Shown here piece after piece: positions 37,553-64,000 of a stretch of 64,000 bases of DNA. The position numbers were made by a program, and so were the translations under genes. The notes below the pieces were generated by a model. It searched no databases, was not told the DNA's origin, and saw only the letters and a program-made list of their open reading frames with translations. Source of the DNA: Eledone cirrhosa. Taxonomy: Eukaryota. The DNA lies in contig OZ024759.1 in NCBI GenBank assembly GCA_964016885.1, positions 3,596,001 to 3,660,000 on the forward strand, read 5' to 3'. The stretch's first letter is position 1. The number at the start of each line of letters is the position of its first letter.

Positions 37553-37599
<47 letters not shown>

Positions 37600-37732
37600 G
37601 GAAAAGATGAAACGATATTTCATTTCCCACTCTTAGTACGGCTGTTACTTAAATATAAGTATGTACACGTACACACATATATGCATACCGACGTACAGTA
37701 GTATGTATATATATATATACATACATGCACAC

Positions 37733-38078
37733 ATATATATATGCACATATGGATTCACCGAATATTTATTATAATGCTCGGTGTGTTTGTAAACAAACAT
37801 CCCGTATTAAGCCGTAGTGTCTAGCAACCACCGTTGCTCGTTTGTAGCCCGTTAATATGCATAAGGTAAGTATATACGTTCAACAATCTGGCAGGAAGGT
37901 ATACGTTGCTGACGATAGCTAACAAGCTTGAAACTAGTACAGCGTTCCTTTGTCAGTGTTGAACAAACGAGCAACGGTGGTTGCTAGACACTACGGCTTA
38001 ATACGGGATGTTTGTTTACAAACATTATAATAAATATTATAATAAATATTCGGTGAATCCATACGTGCATATATATAT
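37733..38078. repeat. Fold-back structure: ~110-bp inverted arms (37733-37845 / 37963-38078) around a ~117-bp spacer carrying a hammerhead
   Basis: GGATTCACCGAATATTTATTATAAT...CCGTTGCTCGTTTGT on the left is the reverse complement of ACAAACGAGCAACGG...ATTATAATAAATATTCGGTGAATCC on the right. Confidence 0.93.
37903..37945 (+). ncRNA. Type I hammerhead ribozyme, family A copy 1
   Basis: Stem I ACGUUG/CAGCGU; core CUGACGA (37909-37915); stem II (U)AGCU-AACA-AGCU(U); GAAA (37930-37933); palindromic stem III ACUAGU; GUA cleavage triplet (37937-37939). Confidence 0.8.
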
Positions 38079-38635
38079 TAATCTGTTATTTTAATAAATA
38101 TTTTCTCTACAGTTCTTATATATTTGATATATATTTATCCTTATTGAGCCCTCTTTGGATTTTAGTCTTCAATTTTATTATTATTACTATATATATATAT
38201 ATATATACACATATAATTGTGTATTCACACATTATCTTAGTAATGATATAATAATTTTAGTAAATTGTTCAAAATTCTTCATTAACCATTTTGGTAGAAA
38301 CCCAGCCAAAATAGGTTCTCGTTATATGGAAATGGTTCCTATCTAAATTAAAGTCTTCCAACGAAATTCTATATAACAACCATATGTTATGTTACTATGT
38401 TAGTAATTAACTAACAATTGTGATAAATAGCCCAAATTATTCATAATTAATTGAAATACGAGGTTCATAATTATAATAAAATCTTCGAACAGGCTACGAA
38501 GCCGGTAAACCTTAAAGGTACGCAACACACACATCGCTATAGCGTTTCACCAGCCAATTCATTCCTCAATCATTACATAGATGTGTGTGTATGTAATAAA
38601 TATTTTGTATTGTGTCTATTTATGAATATGTATGA

Positions 38636-40006
38636 GTAGATGTGTGTGTGTGTGTAACACAGTAGATGTGTGTGTGTGTGTAACACAGTAGATGTGTGTG
38701 TATATAACACAGTAGATGTGTGTATATCACACAGTACATGTGTGTGTATGTAACTCAGTAGATGTGTGTGTATGTAACCCAGTAGATGTATGTGTATGTA
38801 ACTCAGTAGATGTGTGTGTATGTAATACAGTAGATGTGGGTATGTAACACAGTAGATGTGTGTATGTAACATAGTAGATGTGTGTATGTAACACAGTAGA
38901 TGTGTGTGTATATAACACAGTAGATGTTTGTGTATGTAACACAGTAGATGTGTGTAACACAGTAGATGTGTGTGTATGTAACACAATAGATGTGTGTGTA
39001 TATAACACAGATGTGTGTGTATGTAACACAGTAGATGTGTGTGTATGTAACACAGTAGATGTGTGTGTATGTAACATAGTAGATGTGTGTATGTAACACA
39101 GTAGATGTGTGTATTGTAACACAATAGATGTGTGTGTATGTAACACTGTAGATCTCTGTATATGTAACACAGTAGATGTGTGTATGTAACACAGTAGATG
39201 TGTGTGTATGTAATACAGTAGGTGTGTGTGTATGTAACACAGTAGATGTGTGTGTATGTAACACAGTAGATGTGTGTGTATGTAACACAGTAGATGTGTG
39301 TGTATGTAACACAGTAGATGTGAGTGTATGTAACTCAGTAGATGTGAGTGTATGTAACCCAGTAGATGTGTGTAACACAATAGATGTGTGTGTATATAAC
39401 ACAATAGATGTGTGTGTATGTAACACAGTAGATGTGTGTGTATGTAACACAGTAGATGTGTTTGTATGTAACACAGTAGATGTGTGTGTATGTAACACAT
39501 TAGATGTGTGTGTCTGTAACACAGTAGATGTGTGTGTATGTAACACAATAGATGTGTGTGTATATAACACAGTAGAAACGTGTGTTTATGTAACACAGTA
39601 GATGTGTGTGTATGTAACCCAGTAGATGTGTGCGTATATAACCCAGTAGATGTGTGTATGTAACACAGTAGATGTATGTGTATGTAACCCAGTAGATGTG
39701 TGTATGTAAGACAGTAGATGTGTGTGTATCTAAGACAGTAGATGTGTGCATGTAACACAGTAGATGTGTGTGTATGTAACACAGTAGATGTGTGTGTATG
39801 TAACACAATAGATGTGTGTGTATGTAACACTGTAGATCTCTGTATATGTAACACAGTAGATGTGTGTATGTAACACAGTAGATGTGTGTGTATGTAACAC
39901 AGTAGGTGTGTGTGTATGTAACACAGTAGATGTGTGTGTATGTAAGACAGTAGATGTGTGTGTATGTAAGACAGTAGATGTGTGTGTATGTAACACAGTA
40001 GATGTA
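38636..40006. repeat. Minisatellite, ~24-bp unit TGTAACACAGTAGATGTGTGTGTA, roughly 55-60 copies
   Basis: The tandem unit is directly visible, with a variable (TG)n part. Confidence 0.97.
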
Positions 40007-40849
40007 TATATAACTAAAGTGTAACGTAAGTTAAAATGGACGACAAAATGACTTTAACTTGTTTTTTAACAATTGATGGTGGAAAAGATTTTAAATTGTC
40101 TTAACTCAGACCATAAAGGGCTGCAACACATGGTGTTTGACACTCTTACCGGCTACATAGCCAGGGATTCTATTTTACGGGGTCCGGTTACATAGCTTCT
40201 TCTTAAAAATCTTCCAACATAATTTTATACAAGAACCACATGTTAAGTTACTAATAAAATAATTAATAATTAAAAACTTCAGTAAATCCTTCAAATGATA
40301 TCTCAGTAATGAAATAATTAATAATTGTTATAAATACCTCAAAATTCCTCATTAATTAAACCCCAGACAGGTAAAAACTCCAGAGTCTTTCAGTCGGACA
40401 TGAAACAAATTCATTTCTAATGGAAAAAGTAAAGATTGTAAAGTCAGCCAAGGGAGATCACTCTCAGCGACTTATTGTAAATCTTGTTCGTGAATTAATC
40501 CGGATTAAATTATTCTGGTGTATTTTGTGTGGAGGAAACCGGGTTTACGCGGTGATAGCGCGTAATTCAAGAACGTATGGTTCGTGAGACCGGGTAGTCT
40601 GTGCGTTGGCCCCTTGAACAAAACATTTCTCCCAGCTGGCAAAACTAATAAGTTGTACCAGTAATTATAGGGTAACGTTGTTACATAGAATTGTCACACT
40701 GAATCTCTCTGAGAACAATGTCAACGGTACACGTGTCAATGAAATACCCAGACGCATTATAATATAAGATGGATTCTATATGTATTTAAAAAGGAAGGCA
40801 TGTCACACGTTTTGTCTCGCTGAATCTCCCTGTGAACTATGTAAATACT

Positions 40850-41797
40850 AGTGACTATCAGACATAGTGTATCTCGGACTACATTATCTAATGTACAGTA
40901 CAGTAGTTAGTATTAGTGGTTATCAGACATAGTATATCTAGGACTACATTATCTAATGTACAGTACAGTAGTCAGTATTACTGGCTATCAGACATAGTGT
41001 ATCTAGGACTACATTATCTAATGTACAGTACAGTAGTTAGTATTAGTGACTATCAGACATAGTGTATCTAGGACTACATTATCTAATGTACAATACAGTA
41101 GTTAGTATCAGTGGCTATCAGACATAGTGTATCTAGGACTACATTATCTAATGTACAGTACAGTAGTTAGTATTAGTGGCTATCAGACATAGTGTATCTA
41201 GGACTACATTATCTAATGTACAGTACAGTAGTTAGTATTAGTGGCTATCAGACATAGTATATCTAGGACTACATTATCTAATGTACAGTACAGTAGTTAG
41301 TATTAGTGGCTATCAGACAGTGTATCTAGGACTACATTACCTAATGTACAGTACAGTAGTTAGTATTAGTGGCTATCAGACATAGTGTATCTAAGACTAC
41401 CTTATCTAATGTACAATATAGTAGTTAGTATTACTGGCTATCAGACATAGTGTATCTAGGAATACATTATCTAATGTACAATATAGTAGTTAGTATTACT
41501 GGCTATCAGGCATAGTGTATCTAGGAATACATTACCTATTGTACAGTGTAGTAGTTAGTATTAGTGGCTACCAGACATAGTGTATCTAGGACTACATTAC
41601 ATAATGTACAGTACAGTAATCAGTATTAGAGGCTATCAGAGATAGTGTATCTAGGACTACATTATCTAATGTACAGTACAGTAGTTAGTATTAGTGGCTA
41701 TCAGGCATAGTGTATCTAGGACTACATTATCTAATATACAGTACAGTAGTTAGTATTAGTGGCTATCAGGCATAGTGTATCTAAGACTACATTATCT
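40850..41797. repeat. 65-bp tandem repeat, ~14.5 copies
   Basis: Unit AGTGGCTATCAGACATAGTGTATCTAGGACTACATTATCTAATGTACAGTACAGTAGTTAGTATT, starting at 40850 and 40915 and continuing. Confidence 0.97.
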
Positions 41798-41829
41798 TAA
41801 CTGCACATAGCATCCAACCCTGACAGTAT

Positions 41830-42072
41830 GGTGTCCTGGAAATATGTACATTCAAAGCAGAGACCTCACTCTTCAGTTGGTCCTCTTCACAATCTCCACA
41901 CAAGCCAGGTTACTGACGACCCAAGAAATGCACAGAATTCATTGTTGAAAGAAATGGAGGCATTTTCACTGTTGAAGACCAAAATGTACCATCTCCACCA
42001 CCTCTGACATCAGATTCTATTACAACTATGGAATTTAGACCTGCAATGCCACCTTACAAAACCTCTACGTAG
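41830..42072 (+). mobile_element. Degenerate CR1/L2/Jockey-group LINE ORF2 fragment (region preceding the RT domain)
   Basis: Manual translation gives SWKYVHSKQRPHSSVGPL...VTDDP and, after a frameshift, IFTVEDQNVPSPPPLTSDSITTMEF. This resembles the FWKY...GPL...FTxED linker of such elements. Confidence 0.5.
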
Positions 42073-42312
42073 TCTTTCTAACTGCTAGAAATAGCAGCGA
42101 TATTATCCATTACAACTTCGTTTTTTTGTTTAAAATATCCAAAGTTTAGTTATGAAATCAACAGCAAGTCCTTTGCACAGACTTCGGAATAAACTCGAAG
42201 ACCGTCAAAATATCATTCTCCTTCTCTCTCTCTTTAAACAAAGAATAGCTGCTTTCAACCTTAACGGGATCTTCTGAAACTCATTATTTTAATCAATAGT
42301 TGCTCTACGGCT

Positions 42313-42364
<52 letters not shown>

Positions 42365-42457
42365 GTAATTCCGTCGGAAAAGTGCAGGAAAAAAGAGTGC
42401 TCTATGTAGGCAACAGAGCTTAATTATTATTATGTAATAAACAACATAAGGCAATTA

Positions 42458-42517
42458 TTCCATTTACCAGTGGTTTCTTAAAAGCAAAAGGTTTTGCTTT
42501 CAATCCTCAGAATGAAA
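42458..42517 (-). ncRNA. Type I hammerhead ribozyme, family B copy 1
   Basis: Minus strand reads UUUCAUU-CUGAGGA-UUGAAAGCAAA(ACCU)UUUGCUUUUAA-GAAA-CCACUG-GUA-AAUGGAA, giving a 7-bp stem I, an 11-bp stem II and a short stem III. Confidence 0.78.
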
Positions 42518-42662
42518 AAATCCTGGTTTGTTTATTGAATTTGGATTTTAAAAAACAAAAATGCAAACTATATGAAAGTGAGGCTGGAGAAGGGAGAAGG
42601 AAAGGAAAAATAAAATAAAACTACACATGCAAACACACACACAAAAACACAAAAGCATACAT

Positions 42663-42727
<65 letters not shown>

Positions 42728-42977
42728 CACATATATATAAAAAAAAACATTGACACTCCTATGATAAATCAACCGCCTTGAAATCCTTCCCTGCTCTTTA
42801 CTTCTGCTACGGTTTTTATTTTGCTGATTCTACGTTCTGTACTCTTGTATATTTACTTATTTTTTTCTCCCTTACCTCCCCTTATATTTTATCTTTTCTT
42901 ATGCCCCCCCCCCCCATATATTCTGTTTGCCTTGCCCTTCACATACCTATGTGTATGTGTATGTATATTTGTGTGTA

Positions 42978-43046
<69 letters not shown>

Positions 43047-43123
43047 GTGTGTGTATGTGTATGTGTGTATATATATGTATATATTTGTGTGTGTGTATGT
43101 ATATGTGGATAAACCAGGGTTTT

Positions 43124-43183
43124 TTTCATTCTGAAGATTGAAGGAAAAATTTTTTGCTTTTAAGAAACCACTGGTGAATGGAA
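43124..43183 (+). ncRNA. Hammerhead family B copy 2, probably inactive (GUG triplet)
   Basis: UUUCAUU-CUGAAGA-stem II with one mismatch-GAAA-CCACUG-GUG-AAUGGAA. G at the cleavage position violates the NUH rule. Confidence 0.6.
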
Positions 43184-43344
43184 TAATTGCCTTATGTTGC
43201 TTTATTACTTTACTACTATATATACGTATATGTAAGGTTCATATGAATTATCTAAGACTGAGTCTTACACATACACACATGTATGTGTGTGTGTGTGTAT
43301 GTGTATGCATGTGTATATATATGTATGTATATGTATGTATGTAT

Positions 43345-44351
43345 GTAGCAGCAAGTGCCCACAAAATACTAGCTCTTTCAATTGCGCAGAGGGTTCTATA
43401 GAAATAGTGGACAGCTTCCGTTACCTGGGCGATAAAATCAGCAGTGGGGGAGGGTGCTCTGAAAGTACTGTAGCTAGAGTCAGAACTGGTTGGAAAAAGT
43501 TCAGAGAGCTTATACCACTATTAGCTGCTAAAGGGTTCTCCCTAAAAATGAAAGGCAGGTTGTACGATGCCTGCATACGAACAGCAATGTTGCATGGTAG
43601 TGAGACCTGGGCATTGTGTGCAGAGGATATACGCAGACTAGAGAGGAACGAAGCTTGCATGCTCCGCTGGATGTGTAACAGTAATATACGTGAACGGCAA
43701 AGCATAAACGAACTAAGGAAAAAATTAGAGATAAGAGGGATCAGATGTTGTTTACTCGAGAGAAGGCTGCGTTGGTATGGACACGTGATGCGCATGAAAG
43801 TCGATAGCTGTATTACAAAGTGCAGGGCAATAAAGATAGACGGTAGCCACGGAATAGGCAGACCTAGAAAAACATGGGATGAGCTGATAAACTCCGACCT
43901 CACACACTTACACCTCTCCAAGACAATGTCACTGGACCGTGACCTTTGGCGGTACTCAGTAACAGAGAAGACCCGCCTTGCCAGTAGGCATATCTAACAA
44001 AATACACCCCTCCCGCCGCCACCCCCACCCCATCCACACCACCCCGTTCTATGTAAAGTTATGTTGGTGCCGCGCCATCCAGGCCGAAACAAATGAGATC
44101 GTGTAGGTGTCACGACAAAAAAAACACACAGTCCACGCTGTAATGTGGCCGTGTAGGCAACACGGTAAAAACCTCCCAGACCCACACTGTAAATGTGGTT
44201 GGTGTTAGGAAGGGCATCCAACTGTAGAAAACCTGCCAGACAGTCCTATGCGAGCAAGACAATCACTCTTGCCTCAAGTGGGACTACCCCCGTCCAAACC
44301 CATGCAAGCGTGGAACACGGACGTTAAACGTTGATGATGATGATGATGATG
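43345..44351 (+). mobile_element. RTE-clade LINE 3' fragment (end of ORF, 3' UTR and (TGA)n tail)
   Basis: IEIVDSFRYLGD, KGRLYDACIRTAMLHGSETW, RRLRWYGHVMRM and GRPRKTW are typical post-RT RTE motifs. Stop at 43997; tail ACGGACGTTAAACGT(TGA)n at about 44317-44351. Confidence 0.9.
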
Positions 44352-44561
44352 ATATATATGTGTATATATATATATGTATATATATATGTGTGTATATGTA
44401 TGCGTGTGTATGTATATATGTATGTGTGTCTGTGTTTGTGTTTGTATTTGGTTGTGCGTGTTTATGATATGTACGTATTTGTATGTGTATAATTGTTTAG
44501 CTATGTATGTATATGTGTGTGTATGTATACGTATGTGTGTGTGTGTGCGTTTATATTTATG

Positions 44562-44632
<71 letters not shown>

Positions 44633-45042
44633 ATATAATTACATATACATATGTGTGTGTATATATTGTATACGTGTGCGTATTTGTGCATGTATGTGCA
44701 TGTATGTGTTTATGTATTTGTATATGTATATTTATGTGTGAGAGTGTGTGTATGTGTTTACGATTTCGTACGTATGTATACGTGCATTTGTGTGTATTAC
44801 TTACCACGCGTGTCTGTCCAGTTAGCTGCCTTATGTAATGGTGTCAAAAAATTTTTTTAATATATATATATATTTTTTCTTATATTTATTTGCGTGTGTG
44901 AATATGTAGAGGAGTGCATTTATGTATGTGTATGTACGTATGTATATATGTATGATTGTGTGAATGTATGTATGTATATATGTGTGTGTGTATGGCTATG
45001 TTTGTGTATGTGTATGCTTGTACACACATATATATATATGTA

Positions 45043-45091
<49 letters not shown>

Positions 45092-45198
45092 ATATGTGTG
45101 TGTGTATGTGTATGTATGCGTGTATGTATGTGTATATGTGTATGTATGTGCATGTGTATATTTGTGTATGTATATATATATGTGTATATGTATATATG

Positions 45199-45229
<31 letters not shown>

Positions 45230-45230
45230 A
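44352..45230. repeat. Compound (TA)n/(TG)n microsatellite region
   Basis: Directly visible low-complexity sequence. Confidence 0.95.
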
Positions 45231-45468
45231 TGTATGCTTTTGTGTTTTTTTGTGTGTGTGTTTGCATGTGTAGTTTTATTTTATTTTTCCTTTCCTTCTT
45301 CCTTCTCCAGCCTCACTTTCATATAGATTGCATTTTTGTTTTTTAAAATCCAAATTCAATAAACAAACCAGGATTTTTTCATTCTGAGGATTGAAAGCAA
45401 AACCTTTTGCTTTTAAGAAACCACTGGTAAATGGAATAATTGCCTTATCTTGTTTATTACATAATAAT
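45200..45468 (+). repeat. Near-identical inverted copy of 42425-42700 (hammerhead family B terminus)
   Basis: About 250 bp of non-microsatellite sequence is the reverse complement of 42425-42670, with only a few differences. Confidence 0.95.
45377..45436 (+). ncRNA. Type I hammerhead ribozyme, family B copy 3
   Basis: Stem I 45377-45383/45430-45436; CUGAGGA 45384-45390; stem II 45391-45401/45406-45416; GAAA 45417-45420; GUA 45427-45429. Confidence 0.78.
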
Positions 45469-45749
45469 ATTTTACATGGTAGACATTATTTGAATTTTGA
45501 AAATGTGAGACCAGAGAAATTGCTTCATGTGACACTGTAAGAAAACATTAAAAAATGAAATGTATATCTTCTTCTTTATCATTAAGTATGTCAGCAGCAG
45601 CAGCACCACACACACACACACATATATATATACAGAGAGAGAGAGAGAGAAGAGAGAGAGTAGTTAATAATAAATACAAAGACCAAAATCTAGAGAGGGC
45701 TCAATAAGATAAGAGTTTTATGTATATATATATATATACATATATATGT

Positions 45750-46076
45750 ATCATCATCATCATTTTACGTCCACTTTTCCCTGCTTGCGAGGGTGGGACG
45801 GAAACTGATTCTGGTTTGATTTCTACAGCTGGATGCCCTTCCTACCACCAACCTTATTTACAGTGAGTGCTGGGTGCTTTTTTGCTGTGGCACCTCCACG
45901 ACCACTTTGCAGTGGAATGATAGAGGCCCAAGTCCCTATCATCTCATTTCTACAGCTGAGTAAACTGGAGCAATGTGAAATAAAGTGTCTTGCTCAAGGA
46001 AACAACACATCACCCGGTTTGAGAATTGAACTCACAACCTTTCGATTGCAAGGCCAATGCTCTAACCACTAAGCCA
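45750..46076 (-). mobile_element. tRNA-derived SINE head plus an RTE-type 3' tail (composite)
   Basis: Minus strand has an A box TGGCTTAGTGG, a B-box-like GAGTTCAATTC and CTTGAGCAAGACAC. The tail CAAGCAGGGAAAAGTGGACGTAAAA(TGA)n matches 52607-52640. Confidence 0.75.
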
Positions 46077-46298
46077 TAGAGAGAGAGAGAAGTGAGAGAG
46101 TAGTTAATAATAAATAGAAACACCAAAATCTGGAGAGGGCTCAATAAGATAAGAGTTATATATATATATATGTATATATATAAGTTGAAAAAAATGAAAA
46201 CGAAATTTCATTTCTCACTCTTAGTATGGCACTTACTTAAATGTAAGTATGTATGTATACGTACATACATATATGTATACGGACGTACAGTAGCATGC

Positions 46299-46331
<33 letters not shown>

Positions 46332-46482
46332 TACAGGTACACATACATATATGCACGCATCAGTTTAGCGGACGCTTATTATAACGCCGCTTTGTTCGTT
46401 TGTCAACAAACTGAACAGCCTGAATTTATGCCATACGGTGTTAAGGTAACCACGTCACCTTTTTGTTCAACACTGACACAGG

Positions 46483-46527
46483 AACGATGTACTAGTTTCA
46501 AGCTTGTTAGCTATCATCAGCACCGTT
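46483..46527 (-). ncRNA. Type I hammerhead ribozyme, family A copy 2
   Basis: Minus strand reads AACGGUG-CUGAUGA-UAGCUAACAAGCUU-GAAA-CUA-GUA-CAUCGUU. The core is canonical and stem I is 7 bp. Confidence 0.85.
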
Positions 46528-46636
46528 TACCTATCTGCCAGATAGTTGAACGTTCGAAAGTATATTCTTTCCTTATCAAAATTAACGGCTGAGCAGCCTA
46601 ATTTGCATATTGAGTGAGTTAAATCGGTCAGGCATC

Positions 46637-47275
46637 AAATTTGTGTTCTTTTATTTTGTTTTTGATATGCTACCAAGGATTGGGGGTTAGAGTTGTGTTT
46701 GCATTCCTGTCCAGTTGTTATATGGTTTGGATGGCTATTCTAGTAGGCAGATATGAAGCAGGAGGTGCTATTGTTGCTGACATACTAGGGATGGTAAGTA
46801 GGTTAAGGTATCAAATTACCAGAGGGGTCAGTCATCACCCCACCCCCCGTTCATATATGTTAAAGAATTTGTTCGAATAATCTACTTATTTTTTTGTTTA
46901 TTTGAACTTTGTTTATTTGTTTGAACTACATAGCTATATATCCAGGCTGTGTATTATTAGAGAAGGTGATTCTTGTGTAACTATGTAAGGATGCATTAAA
47001 TGTATAGATTTAGTCATTATGTTCAGCTCTAGGTGGAAGTTAGCATGGAATGTGTTAACTATCTAATCTAAGGAAAGTTTTAGATATTTTATGCATACAA
47101 GTATTAACTCTTTAGCATTTACATTACTCTGTAATGTATTTTCTCTGTAAAGTCTTTACCTCACATAATAATCTCACATAATATCAAATCAACAAGATTT
47201 TGATATTATTTATTTTGAGAACAATACCTTAACATAAGTATGAGCAGCCAGTTACGGCTGGTTTGAACAGAAAAA
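46637..47275 (+). repeat. ~640-bp direct duplication of 52932-53570
   Basis: The sequences are nearly identical, about 5 substitutions by eye. ORFs 46641-46880 and 52936-53175 differ by one residue. Confidence 0.97.
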
Positions 47276-47320
47276 GGTGAGAGAATTCTGGCCGGATATG
47301 GCCGGTTTAAATGCTAAAGG
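47108..47320 (+). mobile_element. piggyBac-like MITE, unexpanded monomer
   Basis: TTAA-CTCTTTAGCATTTA...TAAATGCTAAAGG-TTAA; carries a single internal unit. Confidence 0.8.
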
Positions 47321-47473
47321 TTAAAGTGGTCAGAGCCTTTGTTAATTACTTCCTGTCTCCTATTAATAATGTGTTGAGCTTCCGTTGTACAGAGATCACA
47401 GCCACATGAAAAAGGATTCGCATAAATATGGAAATGCATTTGTGAGAATACGCCAAGAAAACGAGTACTGTAC

Positions 47474-47539
47474 CTGGTTCTGTTTTAGCCTCCTTATGAT
47501 TTAGCATAATTTCAGATAGCGCTGTGCTTCTTCTTCTGT
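47474..47539 (-). CDS. Possible small phase 1-1 exon downstream of the EGF exons
   Basis: 66-nt open segment (DRRRSTALSEIMLNHKEAKTEP) between AATAG and GTACAG. The acceptor is weak and there is no domain support. Confidence 0.2.
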
Positions 47540-47589
47540 CTATTCAGTTAAATGAGTGCTGATTGTACCATTTAACATACATACATATG

Positions 47590-48135
47590 TACATGGTGGC
47601 TGCCAACTCGTTTTCGAGTACGGCCACTACTTTATATCCATGTAGGAGAACCCCTACCGATGCGCTGAACAATAGTGACTTTTTAGTCCAGCCAGCGACT
47701 TGAAAATTCCTGTACAGAGAGATCTCCAGATACAAAGCAATGCCTGTGCCGTGAAGCTTTTATAGTGAGCAAAGGCACTGCACAAAGCCAGTCCCACTCT
47801 CTTAACTAAGATGATATTTACCAAAAGGAAGAACAAGTCAACATCATTGGATACCATCAGGGTTGCAGGTGTAATATTAGAGTTTTCCTTCTCCTAGAAT
47901 TCTGCCTTGAGAAAGGCTAAGGGGTCATTTCTCCCAGTGATTTTGGATGGCCATTGACACTTAAAAGCTCCGTTGCCCTTTCACAGGTTTTGTTTTTAGT
48001 CCTGCAGGATGTCCAAAGTCACCCTCCTCATCAAGAAACCTTGGTGGGGTTACCATTTCAGTCGCTAACGACCCGACCATGAGACAGGTTGTACTGGGAT
48101 ACATGTTACCAGTAGCACCAACTGGTGACCTGACA
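47590..48135 (-). mobile_element. Probable RTE 5'-UTR-derived non-autonomous repeat
   Basis: Minus strand contains CTAGGAGAAGGAAAACTC, reminiscent of RTE/BovB-type 5' UTRs. It is a GC-richer island between (CATA)n runs. Confidence 0.4.
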
Positions 48136-48203
48136 TATGTACATATGTACATATATACATACATACATAACCACTTTAAACTAAACAATTTTGTACCCTA
48201 GAA

Positions 48204-48522
48204 CAGGGGTGTGCAACATATTCCATTGGCGGGCCACTTTTGAACATTGGAACAATTATTAGGGCTATTATTATTTATTAAGCACTATTCCGAAGATTCA
48301 CCACAACTTCTTTCCATAACATGGAACTGGGAAAGTATAACACACATAACCCTATCAGTGAAGCCCTTTAGTATAGGTCAACTAACAGAAAATTGTATTA
48401 CGGTTATGAAAAAAATTGTAAATAGGCCTACAAGGTAAACATTTAAAATGGTCACCGCGGGCCACTTTGACTGGTCTGGCAGGGCGGATTGTGGCCCACG
48501 GGCCGCCTGCTACATGCCCCTG
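48204..48522. mobile_element. hAT (Charlie/Buster-like) MITE, 319 bp
   Basis: Termini CAGGGGTGTG...CATGCCCCTG; perfect 8-bp TSD CCCTAGAA (48196-48203 and 48523-48530) with central TA; GGGCC subterminal motifs. Confidence 0.88.
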
Positions 48523-48657
48523 CCCTAGAAGCAGGGGCAGTCTTATGTGGTTTGATGTAAAAAAAATTAAGGACTCATTGATTCTCAACATTTAAACAGT
48601 GTTGTTGTATGAAGGGATGGTTGTGTAAACAACGCTATCTGGTGGTAGGTTACTAAC

Positions 48658-48795
48658 CTGTCTGGCAGTTACTTCCCTTGTAACCAACTGCACATCCTCC
48701 ACTTGAACATATCCCTGACACTATATTACATTTACTGTTGTCTGCACAGTGGCACATATACTTGCAGTTAGGACCAAATGAACCAGATGCACACA
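48658..48795 (-). CDS. Exon (138 nt, phase 1-1) encoding an EGF/laminin-EGF-like repeat of a multiple-EGF (MEGF10/SCARF-like) protein
   Basis: ttgcag|...|gttagt; translates to VCASGSFGPNCKYMCHCADNSKCNIVSGICSSGGCAVGYKGSNCQT. Confidence 0.9.
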
Positions 48796-48880
48796 CTGCA
48801 ATGGAATAAAGCAACAACAACAGAAAACATGAGGATGAAGAAGAAAAAGAGACAATTATACAGACAGATGCACATGCATA

Positions 48881-49128
48881 GTGGAGGTGTGTGGCCTAGT
48901 GGTAAGGGTGTTGGACTTGCAATCATAATGTCATGGGTTCGATTCCTGGGCTGAGTTGTGCGTTGTATTCTTGAGCAAAACACTTCATTTCACGCTGCTC
49001 CAGTATACTCAGCTGAAAACGAGTACCAGCAATAGCTGGGGTTTTGACCCCACGATGGATTGGCGTCCTGTCCAGGGAGGAGTCTTGTACTCTCAGTCAT
49101 TTCACACCATAAAAATGGGATAAGCACC
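48881..49128 (+). mobile_element. tRNA-derived SINE
   Basis: A box TGGCCTAGTGG and B box GGTTCGATTCC; an inverted sister copy lies at about 55720-55965. Confidence 0.8.
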
Positions 49129-49186
49129 TACTATTGTCTTGACACAATATATTATGTTACAAAAAAAGCTATACTACACCACTTAC

Positions 49187-49324
49187 CTGTCTGACAGTTG
49201 CTACCTTCATAACCAGCAGCACATCCTCCACTTGAACACACACCTGTCTGTTTGTTACACCTGCTGTTGTCAGCACAGGGGCATGTGTTGCCACAGTTTG
49301 GTCCAAATTTCCCCTCTGGACATT
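49187..49324 (-). CDS. Exon (138 nt, phase 1-1), EGF-like repeat
   Basis: ttgtag|...|gtaagt; translates to KCPEGKFGPNCGNTCPCADNSRCNKQTGVCSSGGCAAGYEGSNCQT. Confidence 0.92.
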
Positions 49325-49436
49325 CTACAATGAAAGATCATGAGAAAACCTCTGCTCTTTTATCTCACTAAACATTTGTAAAAAAAATGAGGTTCAACTG
49401 AGTAAGAATACAAAGGATTAATAGGATTAATCAACC

Positions 49437-49660
49437 CTTACAATACTAAGGACCTTTGTTAAGTTATGTTCCAAATACCATCTTAACCGTTTTGATACCA
49501 AACTGCCAGATGTGGACCTTGTTCTTACAATACTAACAACCTTTGTTAAGTTATGTTCCAAATACCATCTTAACCCTTTTGATACCAAACTGCCAGATGT
49601 GGACCTTGTTCTTACAATACTAACAACCTTTGTTAAGTTATGTTCCAAGCACCATCTGAG
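49437..49660. repeat. 87-bp tandem repeat, ~2.5 copies
   Basis: Units start at 49437, 49524 and 49611. Confidence 0.85.
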
Positions 49661-49739
49661 ACCACTCTTGGCAGGTCTGTTGGATGTTGGCTTACCTGGG
49701 GCTAAACAACATCAACAATACCTACTACAATATGCAATA

Positions 49740-50030
49740 CCACCACCACTACCACTATCACCAGCAGCAGCAGCACCACCAACACCACCACCACACCAAC
49801 AACAACAAAACCAGCATCCTCCTCCTCACCACCACCACAACTACCTCCACTCCACCACCACCATCACCACCTACACTCCACTCCCACTATAACCACGACA
49901 GCCACCTACACTCCACCAACACCACCACCACCACCACCACCACCATCACCACCACCACCACCATCATCATCATCACCATCACCACCACCACCACCACCAC
50001 CAGTACCACCATCATCATCACCACCACCAT
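49740..50030. repeat. (CAC/CAT)n trinucleotide low-complexity tract
   Basis: Directly visible. Confidence 0.9.
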
Positions 50031-51345
50031 CTGGGAGATCCAAAATACTGTTGTGGTCCCATTCCATTACTTCACCAATCTTGTAGACCCTAAATATTGT
50101 AATGGTCACTGTCCTTTCTCTTCCACCAACCTGAGAGACCCTAAATACTGTTGTGGTCCATGTCCCTTCTCTTCCACCAATCTGGGAGTCCCTAAATACT
50201 GTCATGGTTCCTGTTCCTCCCTCCAGTAATCTTGGAGACCCTAAATACTGTTGTAGTACCTTCCCATTCCTTCCACTAATTTTGGAGACCCTAAATATTG
50301 CAATGGTTACTGTCCCTTCCTTCCTTCAATCTAGGGGACCCTAAATACTGTTCTGGTCCCTGTTCCTTCTCTTCCACCAATCAGTGAGTCCCTAAATACT
50401 GTCATGGTTCCTGTCCCTTACTTCTCTTCCACCAATCAGTGAGTCCCTTAATACTGCCGTAGTCCCTGTCTCTTCTCTTCCACCAATCAGTGAGTCCCTT
50501 AATACTGTTGTGGACCCTGTCTCTTCTCTTCCACCAATCAGTGAGTCTCTTAATACTGTTGTGGTCCCTGTCTCTTCTCTTCCACCAATCAGTGAGTCCC
50601 TAAATACTGTCGTGGTCCCTGTCTCTTCTCTTCCACCAATCAGTGAGTCTCTTAATACTGTTGTGGTCCCTGTCTCTTCTCTTCCACCAATCAGTGAGCC
50701 CCTAAATACTGCCGTAGTCCCTGTCTCTTCTCTTCCACCAATCAGTGAGTCCCTTAATACTGTCGTGGTCCCTGTCTCTTCTCTTCCACCAATCAGTGAG
50801 TCCCTTAATACTGTTGTGGTCCCTGTCTCTTCTCTTCCACCAATCAGTGAGTCCCTAAATACTATCATGGTCCCTGTCTCTTCTCTTCCACCAATCAGTG
50901 AGTCTCTTAATATTGTCGTGGTCCCTGTCTCTTCTCTTCCACCAATCAGTGAGTCCCTAAATACTGTTGTGGTCCCTGTCTCTTCTCTTCCACCAATCAG
51001 TGAGTCCCTAAATACTGTTGTGGTCCCTGTCTCTTCTCTTCCACCAATCAGTGAGTCCCTTAATACTGTCGTGGTCCATGTCTCTTCTCTTCCACCAATC
51101 AGTGAGTCCCTTAATACTGTTGTGGTCCCTGTCTCTTCTCTTCCACCAATCAGTGAGTCCCTAAATACTATCATGGTCCCTGTCTCTTCTCTTCCACCAA
51201 TCAGTGAGTCCCTAAATACTGTCGTGGTCCCTGTCTCTTCTCTTCCACCAATCAGTGAGTCCCTAAATACTGTCGTGGTCCCTGTCTCTTCTCTTCCACC
51301 AATCAGTGAGTCCCTAAATACTGTCGTGGTCCCTGTCTCTTCCCT
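50030..51345. repeat. 51-bp intronic minisatellite, ~25 copies
   Basis: Unit GAGTCCCTAAATACTGTCGTGGTCCCTGTCTCTTCTCTTCCACCAATCAGT; degenerate at the left end and homogeneous at the right. Confidence 0.97.
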
Positions 51346-51374
51346 CTCTAAAGGGTAAACAGATAAAAACTTAC

Positions 51375-51512
51375 TTGACTGGCAGCTGTGTCCCCTGTAA
51401 CCAGGTGAGCACCTTCCATTGATGCAGATACCATTGTCAGAGTAACATTTGCCATTATTCAGACAGTGGCACTTCTTCACACAGTTGACACCAAACATGC
51501 CATGGGCACATC
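51375..51512 (-). CDS. Exon (138 nt, phase 1-1), EGF-like repeat
   Basis: tctcag|...|gtaagt; translates to GCAHGMFGVNCVKKCHCLNNGKCYSDNGICINGRCSPGYRGHSCQS. Confidence 0.92.
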
Positions 51513-51540
51513 CTGAGAAAACAACTTCAATATGTAATTA

Positions 51541-52112
51541 CTGTATTTCCTGACGCCGAAGACACTTCGTCCTCGAGGACACACCCTAATTCTGACAACC
51601 AAAAATTTGAAAAAAAATAATTGTTTCTACTTTTGGCACAAGGCCAGCAATTATCCCAATGTATTACTGGTACTTTATTTTATCGACCCCGTAAGGATGA
51701 ATGGCAAAGTTAACCTCGGCGGGATTTGAACTCAGACCATAAAGGGACGTAACTCTTTGCTGCAAAGCATGGCGTCAGACCGATACTGCCAATCCACCGC
51801 TCTTTGAATTTGAAGAAAAATAATTGTTTCTACTATTGGCACAAGGCCAGCAATCACCCAGTACATTACTGGTACTTTATTTTATCGACTCCGTAAAGAT
51901 GAAAGGCAAAGTTAACCTTGGCAGGATTTGAACTCAGAATGGCAAGTGCTGTAACTCTATGCGTCAAAGCATGGCGTCCGACCCTCTACCGATACTGCCA
52001 ATTCACCGCCCTTTGAAGAAAAATAATAAACAACTTTCGGCCTCCAGGATGCATGGTAGATTTTTGAGACTTATTTTAGTAAAAGTAGCGTCTTTGACGC
52101 CGGGAAATACGG
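51541..52112. mobile_element. Tc1/mariner-superfamily (Tc2/pogo-like) MITE containing two nested minus-strand SINEs (~51617-51802 and ~51818-52012)
   Basis: Imperfect TIRs CTGTATTTCCTGACGCCGAAGAC / GTCTTTGACGCCGGGAAATACGG with TA on the left. The nested copies are reverse complements of the SINE at 54038-54262. Confidence 0.7.
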
Positions 52113-52284
52113 TGAGTTTAATTAATTCAAATTTCAGAGTTGTTATCTTTCATCCTTTGAGTGTATCCCATTTACAATAGTAACTCTATAACCCTGCATG
52201 TTGTAGAAAGAGCCTAAAATAGTTTGGCATCAAGAAGGGCATCCAGCAGCAAAATAATGCCTCAATACTATATATCATCATCAT

Positions 52285-52680
52285 CATTGGATGCGCAATG
52301 TCAATGTGCATGAATGAGCAAGCATAGACGAGTTGAGAAAGAAATTGTGTATAATAGGGATAAGCTGTAGTGTGTGGGAGAGAAGACTGCGTTGGTATAG
52401 ACATATGATGTGCATGGAGGATGACTGCTGGGTAAAGAAGTGCCAAGAAATCCCAGGAGAAAGAAGATGCAGTAGAGGAAGACCACGAAAATCATGGACG
52501 AAGGTGGTGAGATCTGACCTCAGATTGCTGAAGCTCATGGAGGAGATGACGAAAGACTGTGATGAATGGAGAGATGCTGTGCTGTATAGGACCCATCCCA
52601 CCCTTGCAAGCAGGGAAAAGCGGACGTAAAATGATGATGATGATCATCATCATGGTTATCATCATCATCATCATCATCAT
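52285..52680 (+). mobile_element. RTE-clade LINE 3' end with (TGA)n/(CAT)n tail
   Basis: ERRLRWYRHMM...CWVKKC...RGRPRKSW...DEWR, followed by GCAAGCAGGGAAAAGCGGACGTAAAA(TGA)n. Confidence 0.85.
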
Positions 52681-52861
52681 TGTTTAACATCCATCTTCCA
52701 CACTAGTCTGGATTAGATGGTTTTGTTCCACTTGAGGTGAGATTGGTCTGGAGACTGTGTCTTGCTTGTACAGAACTGTCTTTGGTAGGTTTTTTACCCC
52801 TGGAGGCCCTTCCTAACACCAACCACATTTACAGTGTACATCTTCTGTTTATTACATAATT

Positions 52862-52927
52862 CTGTTATACGTATTTCGAAGATGTCAGAGTGGTTGCATA
52901 ACTTTCTGACATGTTCTCTTCAGACAA
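52862..52927 (-). ncRNA. Type I hammerhead ribozyme, family C
   Basis: Minus strand reads UUGU-CUGAAGA-GAACAUGUCAGA...UCUGACAUCUUC-GAAA-UACGU-AUA-ACAG. Stem II is 12 bp with one mismatch and is closed by G-C; stem III is the palindrome AUACGUAU; the triplet is AUA; stem I is short. Confidence 0.72.
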
Positions 52928-52931
52928 GTTG

Positions 52932-53570
52932 AAATTTGTGTTCTTTTATTTTGTTTTTGATATGCTACCAAGGAGTGGGGGTTAGAGTTGTGTTTGCATT
53001 CCTGTCCAGTTGTTATATGGTTTGGATGGCTATTCTAGTAGGCAGATATGAAGCAGGAGGTGCTATTGTTGCTGACATACTAGGGATGGTAAGTAGGTTA
53101 AGGTATCAAATTACCAGAGGGGTAAGTCATCACCCCACCCCCCGTTCATATATGTTAAAGAATTTGTTCGAATAATCTACTTATTTTTTTGTTTATTTGA
53201 ACTTTGTTTATTTGTTTGAACTACATAGCTATATATCCAGGCTGTGTATTATTAGAGAAGGTGATTCTTGTGTAACTATGTAAGGATGCATTAAATGTAT
53301 AGATTTAGTCATTATGTTCAGCTCTAGGTGGAAGTTAGCATGGAACGTGTTAACTATCTAATCTAAGGAAAGTTTTAGATATTTTATGCATACAAGTATT
53401 AACTCTTTAGCATTTACATTACTCTGTAATGTATTTTCTCTGTAAAGTCTTTACCTCACATAATAATCTCACATAATATCAAATCCACAAGATTTTGATA
53501 TTATTTATTTTGAGAACAATACCTTAACAAAAGTATGAGCAGCCAGTTACGGCTGGTTTGAACAGAAAAA
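52932..53570 (+). repeat. Second copy of the ~640-bp duplication, including a truncated piggyBac-like MITE at 53403-53570
   Basis: Near identity to 46637-47275. Confidence 0.97.
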
Positions 53571-53706
53571 GCACCACCTACACTCCACTCCCACTATAAC
53601 CATGACAGCCACCTCCACTCCACTCCCACTATAACCACGACAGCCACCAACACTCCACTCCCACTATAACCATGACAACCACCTACACTCCACCACCACC
53701 ACTCAC

Positions 53707-54296: not shown

Positions 54297-54934
54297 CCCT
54301 TTAGCATTTACATTACCCTGTATTTACTATTGTATTTTCATGGTAAAGGCTTTACCTCACATAATTATCTCATAACATTTACATTACTCTGTATTTACTA
54401 TTGTATTTTCATGGTAAAGGCTTTACCTCACATAATATCTCACATAACATTTACATTACTCTGTATTTACTATTGTACTTTCATGGTAAAGGCTTTACCT
54501 CACATAATTATCTCACATAACATTTACATTACCCTGTATTTACTATTGTATTTTCATGGTAAAGGCTTTACCTCACATAATATCTCACATAACATTTACA
54601 TTACTCTGTATTTACTATTGTATTTTCATGGTAAAGGCTTTACCTCACATAATTATCTCAAATAACATTTACATTACTCTGTATTTACTAATGTATTTTC
54701 ATGGTAAAGGCTTTACCTCACATAATTATCTCACATAACATTTACCTTACTCTGTATTTACTATTGTATTTTCATGGTAAAGGCTTTACCTCACATAATG
54801 TTGAATCTACAAGATTTTAATATTATTTATTTTGAGAACAAAACCTTAACATCAGTATGAGTGACCAGTTGCAGCTGATTTGAACAGAGGTTAGAGATTT
54901 CTGGCCGGATATGGCCAGTTTAAATGCTAAAGGG
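54297..54934 (+). mobile_element. piggyBac-like MITE with an internal 72/73-bp unit expanded to 7 copies
   Basis: TTAA-CCCTTTAGCATTTA...TAAATGCTAAAGGG-TTAA, with perfect 14-bp TIRs and a TTAA TSD. Confidence 0.9.
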
Positions 54935-55339
54935 TTAAACTGTTTACATTCCATTATAATTTCATGTAAGAACCTTTGTTAAGTTACATTCCAAACCACC
55001 TGAAACTGCCCCAGGTTCTATGCTACAAAATTGTTTATTCCAAAGCCTTTATATTATCTAAAAATCTTCCATCTAATTTCATGTAAGAACCTTTGTTAAG
55101 TTACATTCCAAACCACCTGAAACTGCCCTTATTCCACTTTAAGTTTACGGTTCATTTCTTTTTCATTTAGAATTGTCTCCTGCAAGAACATAGATGAAAA
55201 TGGATGAAAATGCACAAAAATTCAAACTGGTTATAATCAACAAGTAAAATCTTATTCATTTTTTTTTTTTTGGCATGGCATTGGAAAAGCATCACACTGT
55301 CTAAAAAAGTCTGTCTTAAACCAGAAGGCTTGTTAGGCC

Positions 55340-56771: not shown

Positions 56772-57006
56772 CTGCAGAAAAACATGGTAAGAAAGTTAAA
56801 ACAAAAAACAAATAGCAATGGTATTTGGTGGTGATGGTGGTGAGGAGGAGGGAGATTTGGGTGAAGTTTAGTCAAAAACTGATTGGCAAACATGGGCTTG
56901 GACCAGTGCAAGATTTAGGGCACATGAAGCCCTGTGCTAGTTATGTTATGAGGCCTCTTACTCGTAAAAAATTCATCATAAAAAATTGTGCCAAATTTAG
57001 AATTAA

Positions 57007-58739
57007 CCCTTTAGCATTTAAACCGGTTGTATTCGGCCAGAATTTTCTCAACTCTTTCTATTCAAACTGGCTGTAACTGGACACTCATACTTATATTAAG
57101 GTATTGTTCTCAAGATAAATAACATCAAAATCTCATAGATTCGATATTATGTGAGATAATTATGAGGGCGGTGGATTGGCAGTATCGGTAGAGGGTCGGA
57201 CGCCATGCTTTGCTGCATAGAGTTACGGCCCTTTATGATTTGAGTTCAATCCTGCCGATGTTAACTTTGCATTTCATCCTTATGGGGTTGATAAAATAAA
57301 GTACCAGTCACTCACTGGGGTTGATTTAATCGACGTTCCCCCTACCCCAAAATTGCTGGCCTTGTGCCTATATAAAAAACCATTATGTGAGATAATTATG
57401 AGGTAAAGCCTTTACTGTGACAATACAATAGTATATATAGAGTAATGTAAATGTTGTGTGAGATATTATGTGAGGTAAAGCCTTTACTGTGACAATACAA
57501 TAGTATATATAGAGTAATGTAAATGTTATGTGAGGTATTATGTGAGGTAAAGCCTTTACTGTGACAATACAATAGTATATATAGAGTAAAGTAAATGTTA
57601 TGTGAGATATTATGTGAGGTAAAGCCTCTACTGTGACAATACAATAGTATATATAGAGTAATGTAAATGTTATGTGAGGTATTATGTGAGGTAAAGCCTT
57701 TACTGTGACAATACAATAGTATATATAGAGTAATGTAAATGTTATGTGAGATATTATGTGAGGTAAAGCCTTTACTGTGACAATACAATAGTATATATAG
57801 AGTAATGTAAATGTTATGTGAGATATTATGTGAGGTAAAGCCTCTACTGTGACAATACAATAGTATATATAGAGTAATGTAAATGTTATGTGAGATATTA
57901 TGTGAGGTAAAGCCTCTACTGTGACAATACAATAGTATATATAGAGTAATGTAAATGTTATGTGAGGTATTATGTGAGGTAAAGCCTTTACTGTGACAAT
58001 ACAATAGTATATATAGAGTAATGTAAATGTTATGTGAGATATTATGTGAGGTAAAGCCTTTACTGTGACAATACAATAGTATATATAGAGTAATGTAAAT
58101 GTTATGTGAGATATTATGTGAGGTAAAGCCTCTACTGTGACAATACAATAGTATATATAGAGTAATGTAAATGTTATGTGAGGTATTATGTGAGGTAAAG
58201 CCTTTACTGTGACAATACAATAGTATATATAGAGTAATCTAAATGTTATGTGAGGTATTATGTGAGGTAAAGCCTTTACTGTGACAATACAATAGTATAT
58301 ATAGAGTAATCTAAATGTTATGTGAGGTATTATGTGAGGTAAAGCCTTTACTGTGACAATACAATAGTATATATAGAGTAATCTAAATGTTATGTGAGGT
58401 ATTATGTGAGGTAAAGCCTCTACTGTGACAATACAATAGTATATATAGAGTAATGTAAATGTTATGTGAGATATTATGTGAGGTAAAGCCTTTACTGTGA
58501 AAATACAATAGTATATATAGAGTAATGTAAATGTTATGTGAGATATTATGTGAGGTAAAGCCTTTACTGTGACAATACAATAGTATATATAGAGTAATGT
58601 AAATGTTATGTGAGGTATTATGTGAGGTAAAGCCTTTACTGTGACAATACAATAGTATATATAGAGTAATCTAAATGTTATGTGAGGTATTATGTGAGGT
58701 AAAGCCTTTACTGTGAAAATACAATAGTATATATAGAGT
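57007..58739 (-). mobile_element. Inverted piggyBac-like MITE copy with a SINE insertion and ~19 tandem 72-bp units, interrupted by the Tx1 LINE
   Basis: TTAA-CCCTTTAGCATTTAAACCGG start; the unit is the reverse complement of the 54.3-54.8 kb unit, with fixed differences. Confidence 0.88.
57167..57381 (+). mobile_element. SINE insertion with a 21-22-bp target site duplication
   Basis: ATTATGTGAGATAATTATGAG occurs at 57146-57166 and 57382-57402. Confidence 0.88.
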
Positions 58740-58976
58740 GGTTTCTTTATTTGCCACTAGGGCACAAAAGGTAGGGACAGATACAAGGGGGGAAGTTTAC
58801 ATATAATTAACGAGTACAAAAATATAACAATGAAATAACAACAACAAACGAAGTCCTCAATAGGGAGGGGGCATTAACATGGGTCGCACACACCCCGGAA
58901 AAAATGTGCAACCCTTCTCCTCAGGAGCACAAAGAGTAGGTGCTTCCCTCGTCTCCTCTTTTTCCTGTTCTTTCAC

Positions 58977-61900: not shown

Positions 61901-62424
61901 AAATCGGCCGATTAACCTTTTGAGGCTTTTACACCCCCCTCTATTGGCACATGCCCCTACATAGTCCCAACGTGCATCCAGGATACCATTCCAGTCCCCC
62001 ACTAAAAGCAAGGAGCGGGACGTTCCCAGAAAAGTTTCCAGACGTTGGAAGTATTCCGGCCGCGCTGCCCAAAAAGGGGCGTACACAGCTATTAGTCTAA
62101 GGGCTCCACTTTCACTACTGCCGACGTCTAAAACCACCAGTCGACCCTCCGGGTCCAGGTGCACCTTCTGTATGGCGAGGCCCAGGTGTTTTCGCAGCAG
62201 AACAACAACTCCACCCCCACCCCCCCCCCACCCGGTTGACAGAGAGATGCGAAGATCTCAAAGTCGTCGAAGAGGGGCGCCAGTTGGTGCTCGCTGCTGA
62301 TCCTGGACTCGCAAATAGCCATTACATCCATTCTATGCGACCTGAGATCGTTTAAAAGTTTGCCTTGTTTCCAAGACAGTCCCAGGCCGCGTACATTCAG
62401 ACACCCAACTCTTATATCAGCCAT
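58977..62424 (-). pseudogene. ORF2 (APE endonuclease-reverse transcriptase-zinc finger), disrupted
   Basis: Motifs CLNVRGL, VYAP, VGDWN, SYLDR, SDHK, KSPGLDGLP, FRPITLLN, DQSKAFDRVDH, QGYPLS, YADD and CPRC..ETVAHAFVHC. In-frame TGA stops at 61574 and 61205; frameshifts near 62215 and 60670. Confidence 0.92.
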
Positions 62425-62445
62425 GTTGGTTAAAAGAGGAAGGAC

Positions 62446-63806: not shown

Positions 63807-64000
63807 CTTTTCTCTCAGAGTTGTAATGTCCAGTTGCTTGCAGGTTTGTGTTTTCCGGACCGCCTGTGCAAAGGAGGCACCAGTAGTGGGTTCGCTTTGT
63901 TTGGTGTTATCGTTATTTTTTCCTTGGTTGGTGTTGTGACTATTGCTGTTATTGTCGTTGTTGTTTTTGTCTGCGTTTATGTGACTTTCTGGGTTTTCAC

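Follow-up and report, generated by a model that had tools for sequence, protein, structure and literature searches.

Six hammerhead ribozyme motifs in Eledone cirrhosa assigned to two Hydra-type Penelope-like elements and a non-coding retrozyme

A 64,000-nt stretch of the Eledone cirrhosa genome (assembly GCA_964016885.1, contig OZ024759.1, positions 3,596,001 to 3,660,000 of the forward strand; hereafter the window, position 1 being its first letter) contains six hammerhead ribozyme motifs within 15 kb. Our reading, to which we give a probability of about 0.85, is that three of them belong to a two-armed copy of a Hydra-clade Penelope-like element (PLE), family B, that one marks the end of an older, decayed PLE, family C, and that two lie in copies of a retrozyme, family A, likely copied by PLE-type enzymes into TA microsatellites, with the RNAs predicted to be cut in pairs. 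Carrying this reading are the structures of the elements, the linkage of B and C to open reading frames (ORFs), the head-to-head orientation of insertion arms and the covariation of hammerhead stems, all of which are seen in the sequences.

Hammerhead motifs and the insertions that carry them

Descriptor searches confirmed type I hammerhead topologies at the six sites, and on the strands, proposed in a first-pass annotation of this DNA, including the GUG of the copy at 43124. The type I core (CUGANGA, GAAA and NUH around a three-helix junction with helix I open) is complete in five of the six motifs; the sixth, the GUG copy, departs from NUH. Our first descriptor found C and missed A and the GUG copy, and a second, relaxed descriptor returned four NUH motifs and the GUG motif from the window and missed C, which has a mismatch near the base of stem II. 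When 300 dinucleotide shuffles of positions 36200-64000, the 27.8-kb non-satellite part of the window, were searched with the second descriptor, the mean was 0.003 motifs and the maximum 1; the six motifs far exceed chance expectation. They represent four insertions of three elements, A, B and C, and the three B motifs are all parts of a single insertion. Because five hammerhead patterns gave more than 23,000 matches in the 3.0 Gb of the genome, the motif density of the window is ordinary for this genome. The copy-number check suggested in the first-pass annotation gave 13,211 exact matches to a 34-nt A core (0 for the control), 6,739 matches to the B pattern (0 for the control) and 139 diverged matches to the C pattern. 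The suggested Rfam check turned up no hammerhead family among 49 matches in the window at E values up to 1, which consist only of microsatellite-driven, miRNA-like noise.

Parts of the original description needed revision. The motifs had been called minimal type I hammerheads with a short, mostly palindromic stem III; stem III of A is palindromic, but the A hammerhead, with its 6-bp helix I, 3-nt bulge, extended helix I and 4-bp helix II, is canonical and not minimal, and stem III of B is a quasi-palindrome, ACCA-C-TGGT. The elements had also been described as non-coding and of PLE or retrozyme type. Their type and their association with (TA)n have stood, and predicted action as dimers is likely, but the non-coding label fits A only and fails for B and C. 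Likewise, the window was said to contain no Penelope reverse transcriptase (RT) or GIY-YIG ORF, which is correct for intact ORFs but overlooks two remnants, one in B (42749-42781) and one in C (47329-47590). The search for linkage to PLE ORFs succeeded for B and C; for A, comparison with B gave no PLE partner with clear sequence homology.

Compensatory stem changes occur in all three families. A comparison of A1, A2 and a homologous relative (A/E) showed 6 of 15 pairs changed on both sides, against 0 of 500 shuffles, among related rows that reflect few events. In B, 3 of 20 pairs covary (1 of 500 shuffles), and in C, 3 of 13 (1 of 500 shuffles for the covariation score), the C covariation lying in stem II; related rows enter these counts, and for B and C the search patterns held stems I and III constant.

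Family B and its internal GUG copy

As judged from its sequence, family B is represented in the window by one 5'-truncated, two-armed copy of an autonomous Hydra-clade PLE, which accounts for three motifs. Its parts are listed here; predicted cut sites, here and below, were read from the sequence.

42360..42737 (-): B inverted arm, 3' end with hammerhead and a tail of ~70 nt, outer end in (TA)n (self-BLAST, 95.6% to 45157-45472)
42458..42517 (-): terminal hammerhead B of the inverted arm, GUA, predicted cut site 42465/64
42749..42781 (+): final 10 codons of the 714-aa RT/GIY-YIG ORF, with its stop
42782..45472 (+): B 3' untranslated region (UTR), rich in microsatellites, 1.9 kb when the copy is intact, terminating with the short 3' end
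43124..43183 (+): internal GUG hammerhead B', predicted uncleavable, lying in a repeat of the element's own 3' end that spans ~100 nt; the G of GUG at 43176
43347..44353 (+): 3' fragment of a long interspersed nuclear element (LINE), a later insertion in the B UTR (missing between B' and B in other copies)
45377..45436 (+): terminal hammerhead B of the direct arm, GUA, predicted cut site 45429/30

At other loci, a GIY-YIG ORF lies directly upstream of the UTR sequence present in the window. An RT query gave 40,743 candidates, and among the 150 that were scored, 19 had open frames of 713-715 aa. Hammerhead B lies downstream of an ORF on the same strand in 19 of 20 fetched regions (18 distinct places, selected for open frames of this length). 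The full unit is 4,253 nt long, with a tandem spacing of 4.25-4.3 kb in the fetched regions, and its 714-aa ORF (713-715 aa across copies) combines RT with a C-terminal GIY-YIG domain. The protein has YRDD at position 346 and a GIY-YIG-like motif at 574, and carries RWK, DKT, a CxCX5C linker, CxxC, and CxH around conserved E and N; DKG and CX2-5CxxC are not present in it. A Pfam scan of the PLE fragments gave no relevant match, and homologs bear PF26215/PF28514. The Hydra traits of (TA)n insertion, a 3' hammerhead, head-to-head arms and an optional tail are all present, and although the unit exceeds the <3 kb usual in the clade, that length is a tendency and not a diagnostic character. Wider B loci keep a constant order: a pyrimidine-rich piece, the GUG copy, a TG/TA-rich tract and the terminal GUA copy.

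The 3' ends of B fall into distinct classes. Among 81 distinct contexts, a few of which may be duplicates, 41 ends were short (~+33 to +40; 3 of these are misfiled or broken), 28 were tail ends (~+100 to +105) and 12 ran into the next unit. The insertion in the window has a tail end on its inverted arm and a short end on its direct arm. When two B hammerheads were co-folded, the double hammerhead was the minimum-energy structure (-31.4 kcal/mol).

The internal copy, B', gave 627-629 pattern matches genome-wide. Among the matches listed, its core, which was left free in the pattern, is kept in 97 of 100 copies, and A stands at N7 in 77 of 100 copies, G in 15 and T in 8 (hand count). B' is internal in 19 of 20 fetched regions, which are mostly T and G variants and mostly older, the remaining one being a mutated terminal copy; the ORFs ahead of internal B' are 72-96% identical to those of the young family. 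GUG is not a cleavage site (PMC4191386). The simplest reading is that B' is likely a disabled self-insertion of B, because its edges fit a short 5'-truncated insertion with its short end in a TA tract. A 5'-truncated B fragment of ~100 nt would have inserted into (TA)n of the parent's own 3' UTR, then lost its cut site and start signal, and been inherited thereafter. N7 is T in both the internal and the terminal copies of the oldest variants and G in both in most intermediates, with two loci having G internally and C terminally; this parallel change suggests conversion or co-evolution.

The LINE 3' fragment in the B UTR, which we take to be RTE-like, was considered as a component or mobiliser of B and ruled out, being missing from other B copies; some of its homologs carry RVT_1, and it has weak matches in Octopus bimaculoides. 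Together with the closeness of B to an O. bimaculoides element and with SINE-like repeats of octopod type, these matches make an octopus genome likely. Degenerate B-like copies at loci L108, L120 and L132 keep GUA, have mismatches in stems I and III, and lie close to intact-type RT matches. At loci L092, L093, L095, L096 and L097, the microsatellite-rich 3' UTR of B has other PLE families nested in it, with one more hammerhead and an open frame of 619 aa among them; PLEs target one another's TA tracts.

Families A and C and the rest of the window

Family A, judged by its monomers, is alone among the three in being non-coding: a tandem retrozyme with a monomer of 420-540 nt. Two copies lie in the window.

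37595..37845 (-): inverted arm of retrozyme A1; it stops just short of the hammerhead, and its outer (tail 3') end meets (TA)n (self-BLAST inverted repeat 37733-38078, junction sequence)
37846..38078 (+): direct arm of retrozyme A1, belonging to a 422-nt monomer and ending in the TA tract inside it
37903..37945 (+): canonical type I hammerhead of A1 with GUA, U.U at 10.1/11.1 and a palindromic stem III; extended helix I ~37878-37963, predicted cut site 37939/40
46181..46636 (-): retrozyme A2, a single 5'-truncated monomer with its tail 3' end in (TA)n
46483..46527 (-): hammerhead A2, GUA, predicted cut site 46490/89

Monomers of 422 and 466 nt have GC contents of 0.38 and 0.36 and longest Met ORFs of 51 and 112 aa, and the monomer fold has z = -7.8. 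Tandem copies are spaced at 420-538 nt in arrays of 2-7 in one direction. In one public sequencing run, the positions of the A hammerhead at which variants are frequent are N7, loop 2 and the two partners of a single stem I pair. Across 40 fetched regions and the window, all 17 opposite-strand A neighbours within 700 bp are head to head. Tail-site junctions that do not continue into another monomer run into (TA)n in 24 of 26 cases, the other 2 being mutated continuations, and every one of the 14 two-armed insertions whose two ends were both classified combines a short end with a tail end, the remaining regions having one end or none classified. By analogy with PLEs, we read these paired short and tail arms as a PLE footprint. 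The two ends lie downstream of the cut site, at +219/+274 in A1 and +251/+309 in A2, and RT would therefore have to cross cut sites that are intact.

Between A and the other two families, likeness is confined to short AT-rich motifs at the ends: one resembling TTCA(A)TT recurs at the tail 3' ends of all three families, and one resembling TTACAT precedes (TA)n at the short ends of A and B, AT-rich likenesses that may be due to chance. A second abundant retrozyme (at loci such as L155-L184) is homologous to A over its full length and has a 469-nt monomer, a canonical G10.1-C11.1 pair and GUC; its pattern gave 3,635 matches against 19 for the control, and this family makes up most of the matches listed. 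A young PLE family of the 905-aa RYVDD type (loci L266 and L267), with intact ORFs, a divergent hammerhead-like core (CCGAAGA) near its 3' end and a location in (TA)n, is another candidate retrozyme carrier.

The C hammerhead appears, from the remnants linked to it, to be the 3' end of an old, decayed Hydra-type PLE. The following parts are present.

46637..47102 (-): C 3' UTR, first tandem copy, hammerhead missing where A2 sits (99.2% to 52932-53571)
47103..47328 (no strand): insertion flanked by TTAA and resembling a miniature inverted-repeat transposable element (MITE), splitting the C element (empty site in locus L088)
47329..47590 (-): decayed C-terminal half of a Hydra-type GIY-YIG endonuclease (profile matches, domain E ~0.002)
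52862..52927 (-): hammerhead C with AUA, a long stem II and a palindromic stem III, predicted cut site 52866/65
52928..53571 (-): C 3' UTR and partial MITE, second tandem copy

The endonuclease remnant shares 62-69% DNA identity with the endonuclease regions of loci L063, L069 and L088, and CxCX5C is visible in the C-linked remnants of L063 and L088. Hydra-type ORF remnants lie upstream of C in 5 of 30 loci (3 on the same strand and 2 on the inverted arm), and no intact-ORF copy was found among the C loci examined. The 640-bp duplicate (99.2%) in the window reflects a 6.3-kb tandem unit, and on another contig hammerhead C, UTR, MITE and ORF remnant are contiguous within such a unit. Both A2 and C lie within a segmentally duplicated block, and the block around A2 is present in five other fetched places at 98.5-99.9%. 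A link between C and the RYIDD/YIGST ORF of locus L074 (78% over 576 nt of UTR) was rejected, hammerhead C occurring in 0 of 14 relatives of that ORF; RYIDD-type (Penelope/Poseidon) relatives bear a hammerhead of their own ~270 nt past the stop (n=14).

Positions 46637-53571 of the window, like locus L268, concern this larger unit, of which the window holds ~1.1 copies; it contains EGF-like exons (e.g. 51400-51537, -), one of them in frame with a 51-nt minisatellite, and the block recurs on several contigs. The TTAA-flanked MITE family is found in the window at 47103-47328, 53398-53571, 54300-54940 and 57003-58740, and its internal 72-73-nt unit expands into minisatellite arrays. Elsewhere in the window, positions 1-36183 hold a strongly AT-skewed satellite of 15-17 nt, arrayed over 36 kb, and positions 58980-63998 (-) are a nearly complete retrotransposon lacking long terminal repeats (non-LTR), with a few breaks and with RVT_1 and zf-RVT matches.

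Proposed mechanism, alternatives and known systems

A and B each have two fixed 3' ends, ~55-70 nt apart and joined to (TA)n. On the model of published PLE biochemistry, the GIY-YIG domain would nick AT-rich DNA, here (TA)n, and RT would begin at two internal positions that lie downstream of the hammerhead, which would require a template intact through the cut site, either as an uncut read-through multimer or as a re-ligated circle. Copying from such a template could give rise to the tandem arrays, the head-to-head insertions and the pairs of short and tail ends. With its short palindromic stem III, each hammerhead may be weak alone and active as a double hammerhead, and paired hammerheads may trim multimers to unit length. 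A Hydra-clade enzyme is the somewhat favoured carrier of A.

Besides the limits given above for the covariation counts and the B ends, several observations weigh against this account. The quasi-conserved G10.1-C11.1 pair is missing from A, which has U.U, and from B, which has U-A or C.A (C has G-C or G.U); its loss does not exclude membership of the hammerhead class, because U.U is common at this position among published Hydra hammerheads (PMC8557442, supplement). Alignment of A with the B 5' UTR is at chance level, no autonomous partner sharing A sequence was found, and the scores of A against B 3' ends, which do rise above shuffles, probably reflect TA/TG simple sequence. No Hydra ORF lies within 1.5 kb in 25 of the 30 C loci. 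A pure fossil reading of B' does not account for the N7 changes that B' and B underwent in parallel, and the minimum-energy structures of the A1/A1 and C/C co-folds are not double hammerheads. In the published work, hammerhead mutants of the Poseidon element PAc left insertion in vitro unaffected, hammerhead cleavage required protein, RNA sequencing gave no ends at the cut site (PMC11167929), and just 1 of 9 retrozyme dimers was cleaved (bioRxiv 2026.07.22.740005).

These last results would suit a view in which conservation of the hammerheads reflects a role as RNA folds or protein-binding signals, with cutting rare or absent during transposition: RT starts downstream of the cut site, leaving the template intact there, PAc mutants still insert, and the other 8 of 9 retrozyme dimers were inactive in vitro. 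We consider it doubtful, given that the catalytic core and NUH are kept across diverged subfamilies, that the internal copy of B lost exactly the cut site, and that related animal retrozymes self-cleave and circularise (PMC7229834). Another conceivable reading is that B' has been retained as a helper that cannot itself be cleaved and that gives a cis double hammerhead its catalytic strand, letting a single-unit transcript be cut at the terminal GUA only, with no need of a tandem copy, and co-evolving with its partner. Its genome-wide abundance, its near-constant core, its internal position in regions chosen mostly from older variants and the joint change of N7 from T to G agree with such a role. 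Conservation between old and young copies, at 88%, is nevertheless close to that of other UTR pieces (85% and 89%) and below that of the terminal motif (92%); the young intact subfamily has B' copies with decayed stems II and III; at 5 loci, some with intact ORFs, the core reads CUGUAGA; the minimum-energy B'/B fold is not a double hammerhead (-28.0, versus -22.9 for the imposed structure); and by our estimate ~6 lineage changes in 60 nt would spare the 11 core positions by chance ~30% of the time. A helper role is on balance unlikely.

For A, spread mainly as a DNA-level satellite through unequal crossing-over and segmental duplication, with the hammerhead a decayed passenger, would accord with the copying of A2 within its block and with the replacement of G10.1-C11.1 by U.U. 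This seems highly improbable in view of the dispersed (TA)n insertions with fixed 3' ends and paired short and tail arms, the compensatory stem changes, the variants that fall on N7, loop 2 and both sides of a stem I pair, and the frequency of U.U in published Hydra hammerheads. The proposal of the first-pass annotation, that all three families are non-coding retrozyme or PLE-derived mini-elements, could point to the lack of an intact PLE ORF in the window and to the many B and C copies that are short 3' fragments in (TA)n. It is refuted for B, whose UTR follows the 714-aa ORF in all but one of the selected regions and whose last codons lie in the window; C has its endonuclease remnant, and a short tandem monomer was not seen for B or C among the matches listed, so that as a whole it is scarcely credible. 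We therefore retain the combination of a two-armed Hydra-clade PLE, a decayed older PLE end and a probably PLE-dependent retrozyme.

The kinds of element involved have been published, namely hammerheads at PLE ends (PMC4209133), a Hydra clade that includes an octopus element (PMC8557442), animal retrozymes (PMC7229834) and the PLE origin of these retrozymes (bioRxiv 2026.07.22.740005), and the finding is accordingly mainly one of annotation. The first-pass annotation had suggested possibly undescribed families; neither families A, B and C nor the internal GUG copy are described in the literature searched, which lay outside most subscription journals, Repbase, Dfam and bioRxiv supplements. These RNAs appear to be under-annotated in cephalopods, because a term search of the main text of a recent Octopus vulgaris repeat annotation (PMC13282606) found neither 'ribozyme' nor 'hammerhead'. 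A young Hydra-clade PLE with many intact ORFs beside an abundant retrozyme with a two-start-site footprint makes a convenient test system, in which the proposal that PLE enzymes mobilise animal retrozymes becomes directly testable in vitro, and the natural GUA/GUG pair probes how dimeric PLE hammerheads work.

The closest known relative of B is Hydra-1_Obim of Octopus bimaculoides (Craig et al. 2021, PMC8557442), described there as a 2,507-bp element in (TA)n with hammerhead stem III ACCA-A-TGGT and 'no pLTR'. The two share a single ORF with RT and C-terminal GIY-YIG and a 3' type I hammerhead with an ACCA-N-TGGT stem III, and B has in common with the Hydra clade RWK, DKT, CxCX5C, CxxC, CxH and (TA)n targeting. 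In the RT core, 73 of 112 residues are identical, counted by eye from the printed supplement, and B is by its sequence a separate family. Unlike Hydra-1_Obim as annotated, B has tandem copies and intact ORFs, and, owing to a 1.9-kb microsatellite-rich 3' UTR with a second, GUG hammerhead, its unit of 4.25 kb exceeds every one of the 27 listed Hydra entries (1.1-3.0 kb) in length. B and C also resemble the minimal hammerheads of PLE terminal repeats described by Cervera and de la Pena (2014, PMC4209133), with a long helix II, a helix III that is short and palindromic, motifs that are mostly single and come from truncated PLEs, close opposite-strand pairs and predicted dimer activity; B differs from them in its 7-bp helix I and in having U-A or C.A instead of G-C at 10.1/11.1, and A is canonical, not minimal, in the sense of that study. 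A and B recall Poseidon PAc of Anolis (Frangieh et al. 2024, PMC11167929) in their two internal RT start sites past the hammerhead, optional tail and AT-rich targets. PAc belongs to a different clade and has a tail of 30-40 nt in the ORF start, whereas the tail here, known from sequence, is 55-70 nt and lies in the UTR.

A is most like the animal non-LTR retrozymes (Cervera and de la Pena 2020, PMC7229834; Li, Clavereau and Pollet 2026, bioRxiv 10.64898/2026.07.22.740005), which are likewise non-coding, low-GC, structured tandem monomers with one canonical type I hammerhead each, thousands of copies and a proposed dependence on PLEs. Expression and circles have been demonstrated for published retrozymes, whereas A is known here from the genome. 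Its 420-540-nt monomer is longer than the 220-390-nt units of coral, axolotl and mussel and falls within the 51-972 range of Li et al., and it differs from the published retrozymes in U.U at 10.1/11.1. The head-to-head A insertions with paired short and tail ends provide junction-level evidence for mobilisation by PLEs of a kind that we did not encounter in the published retrozyme work compared.

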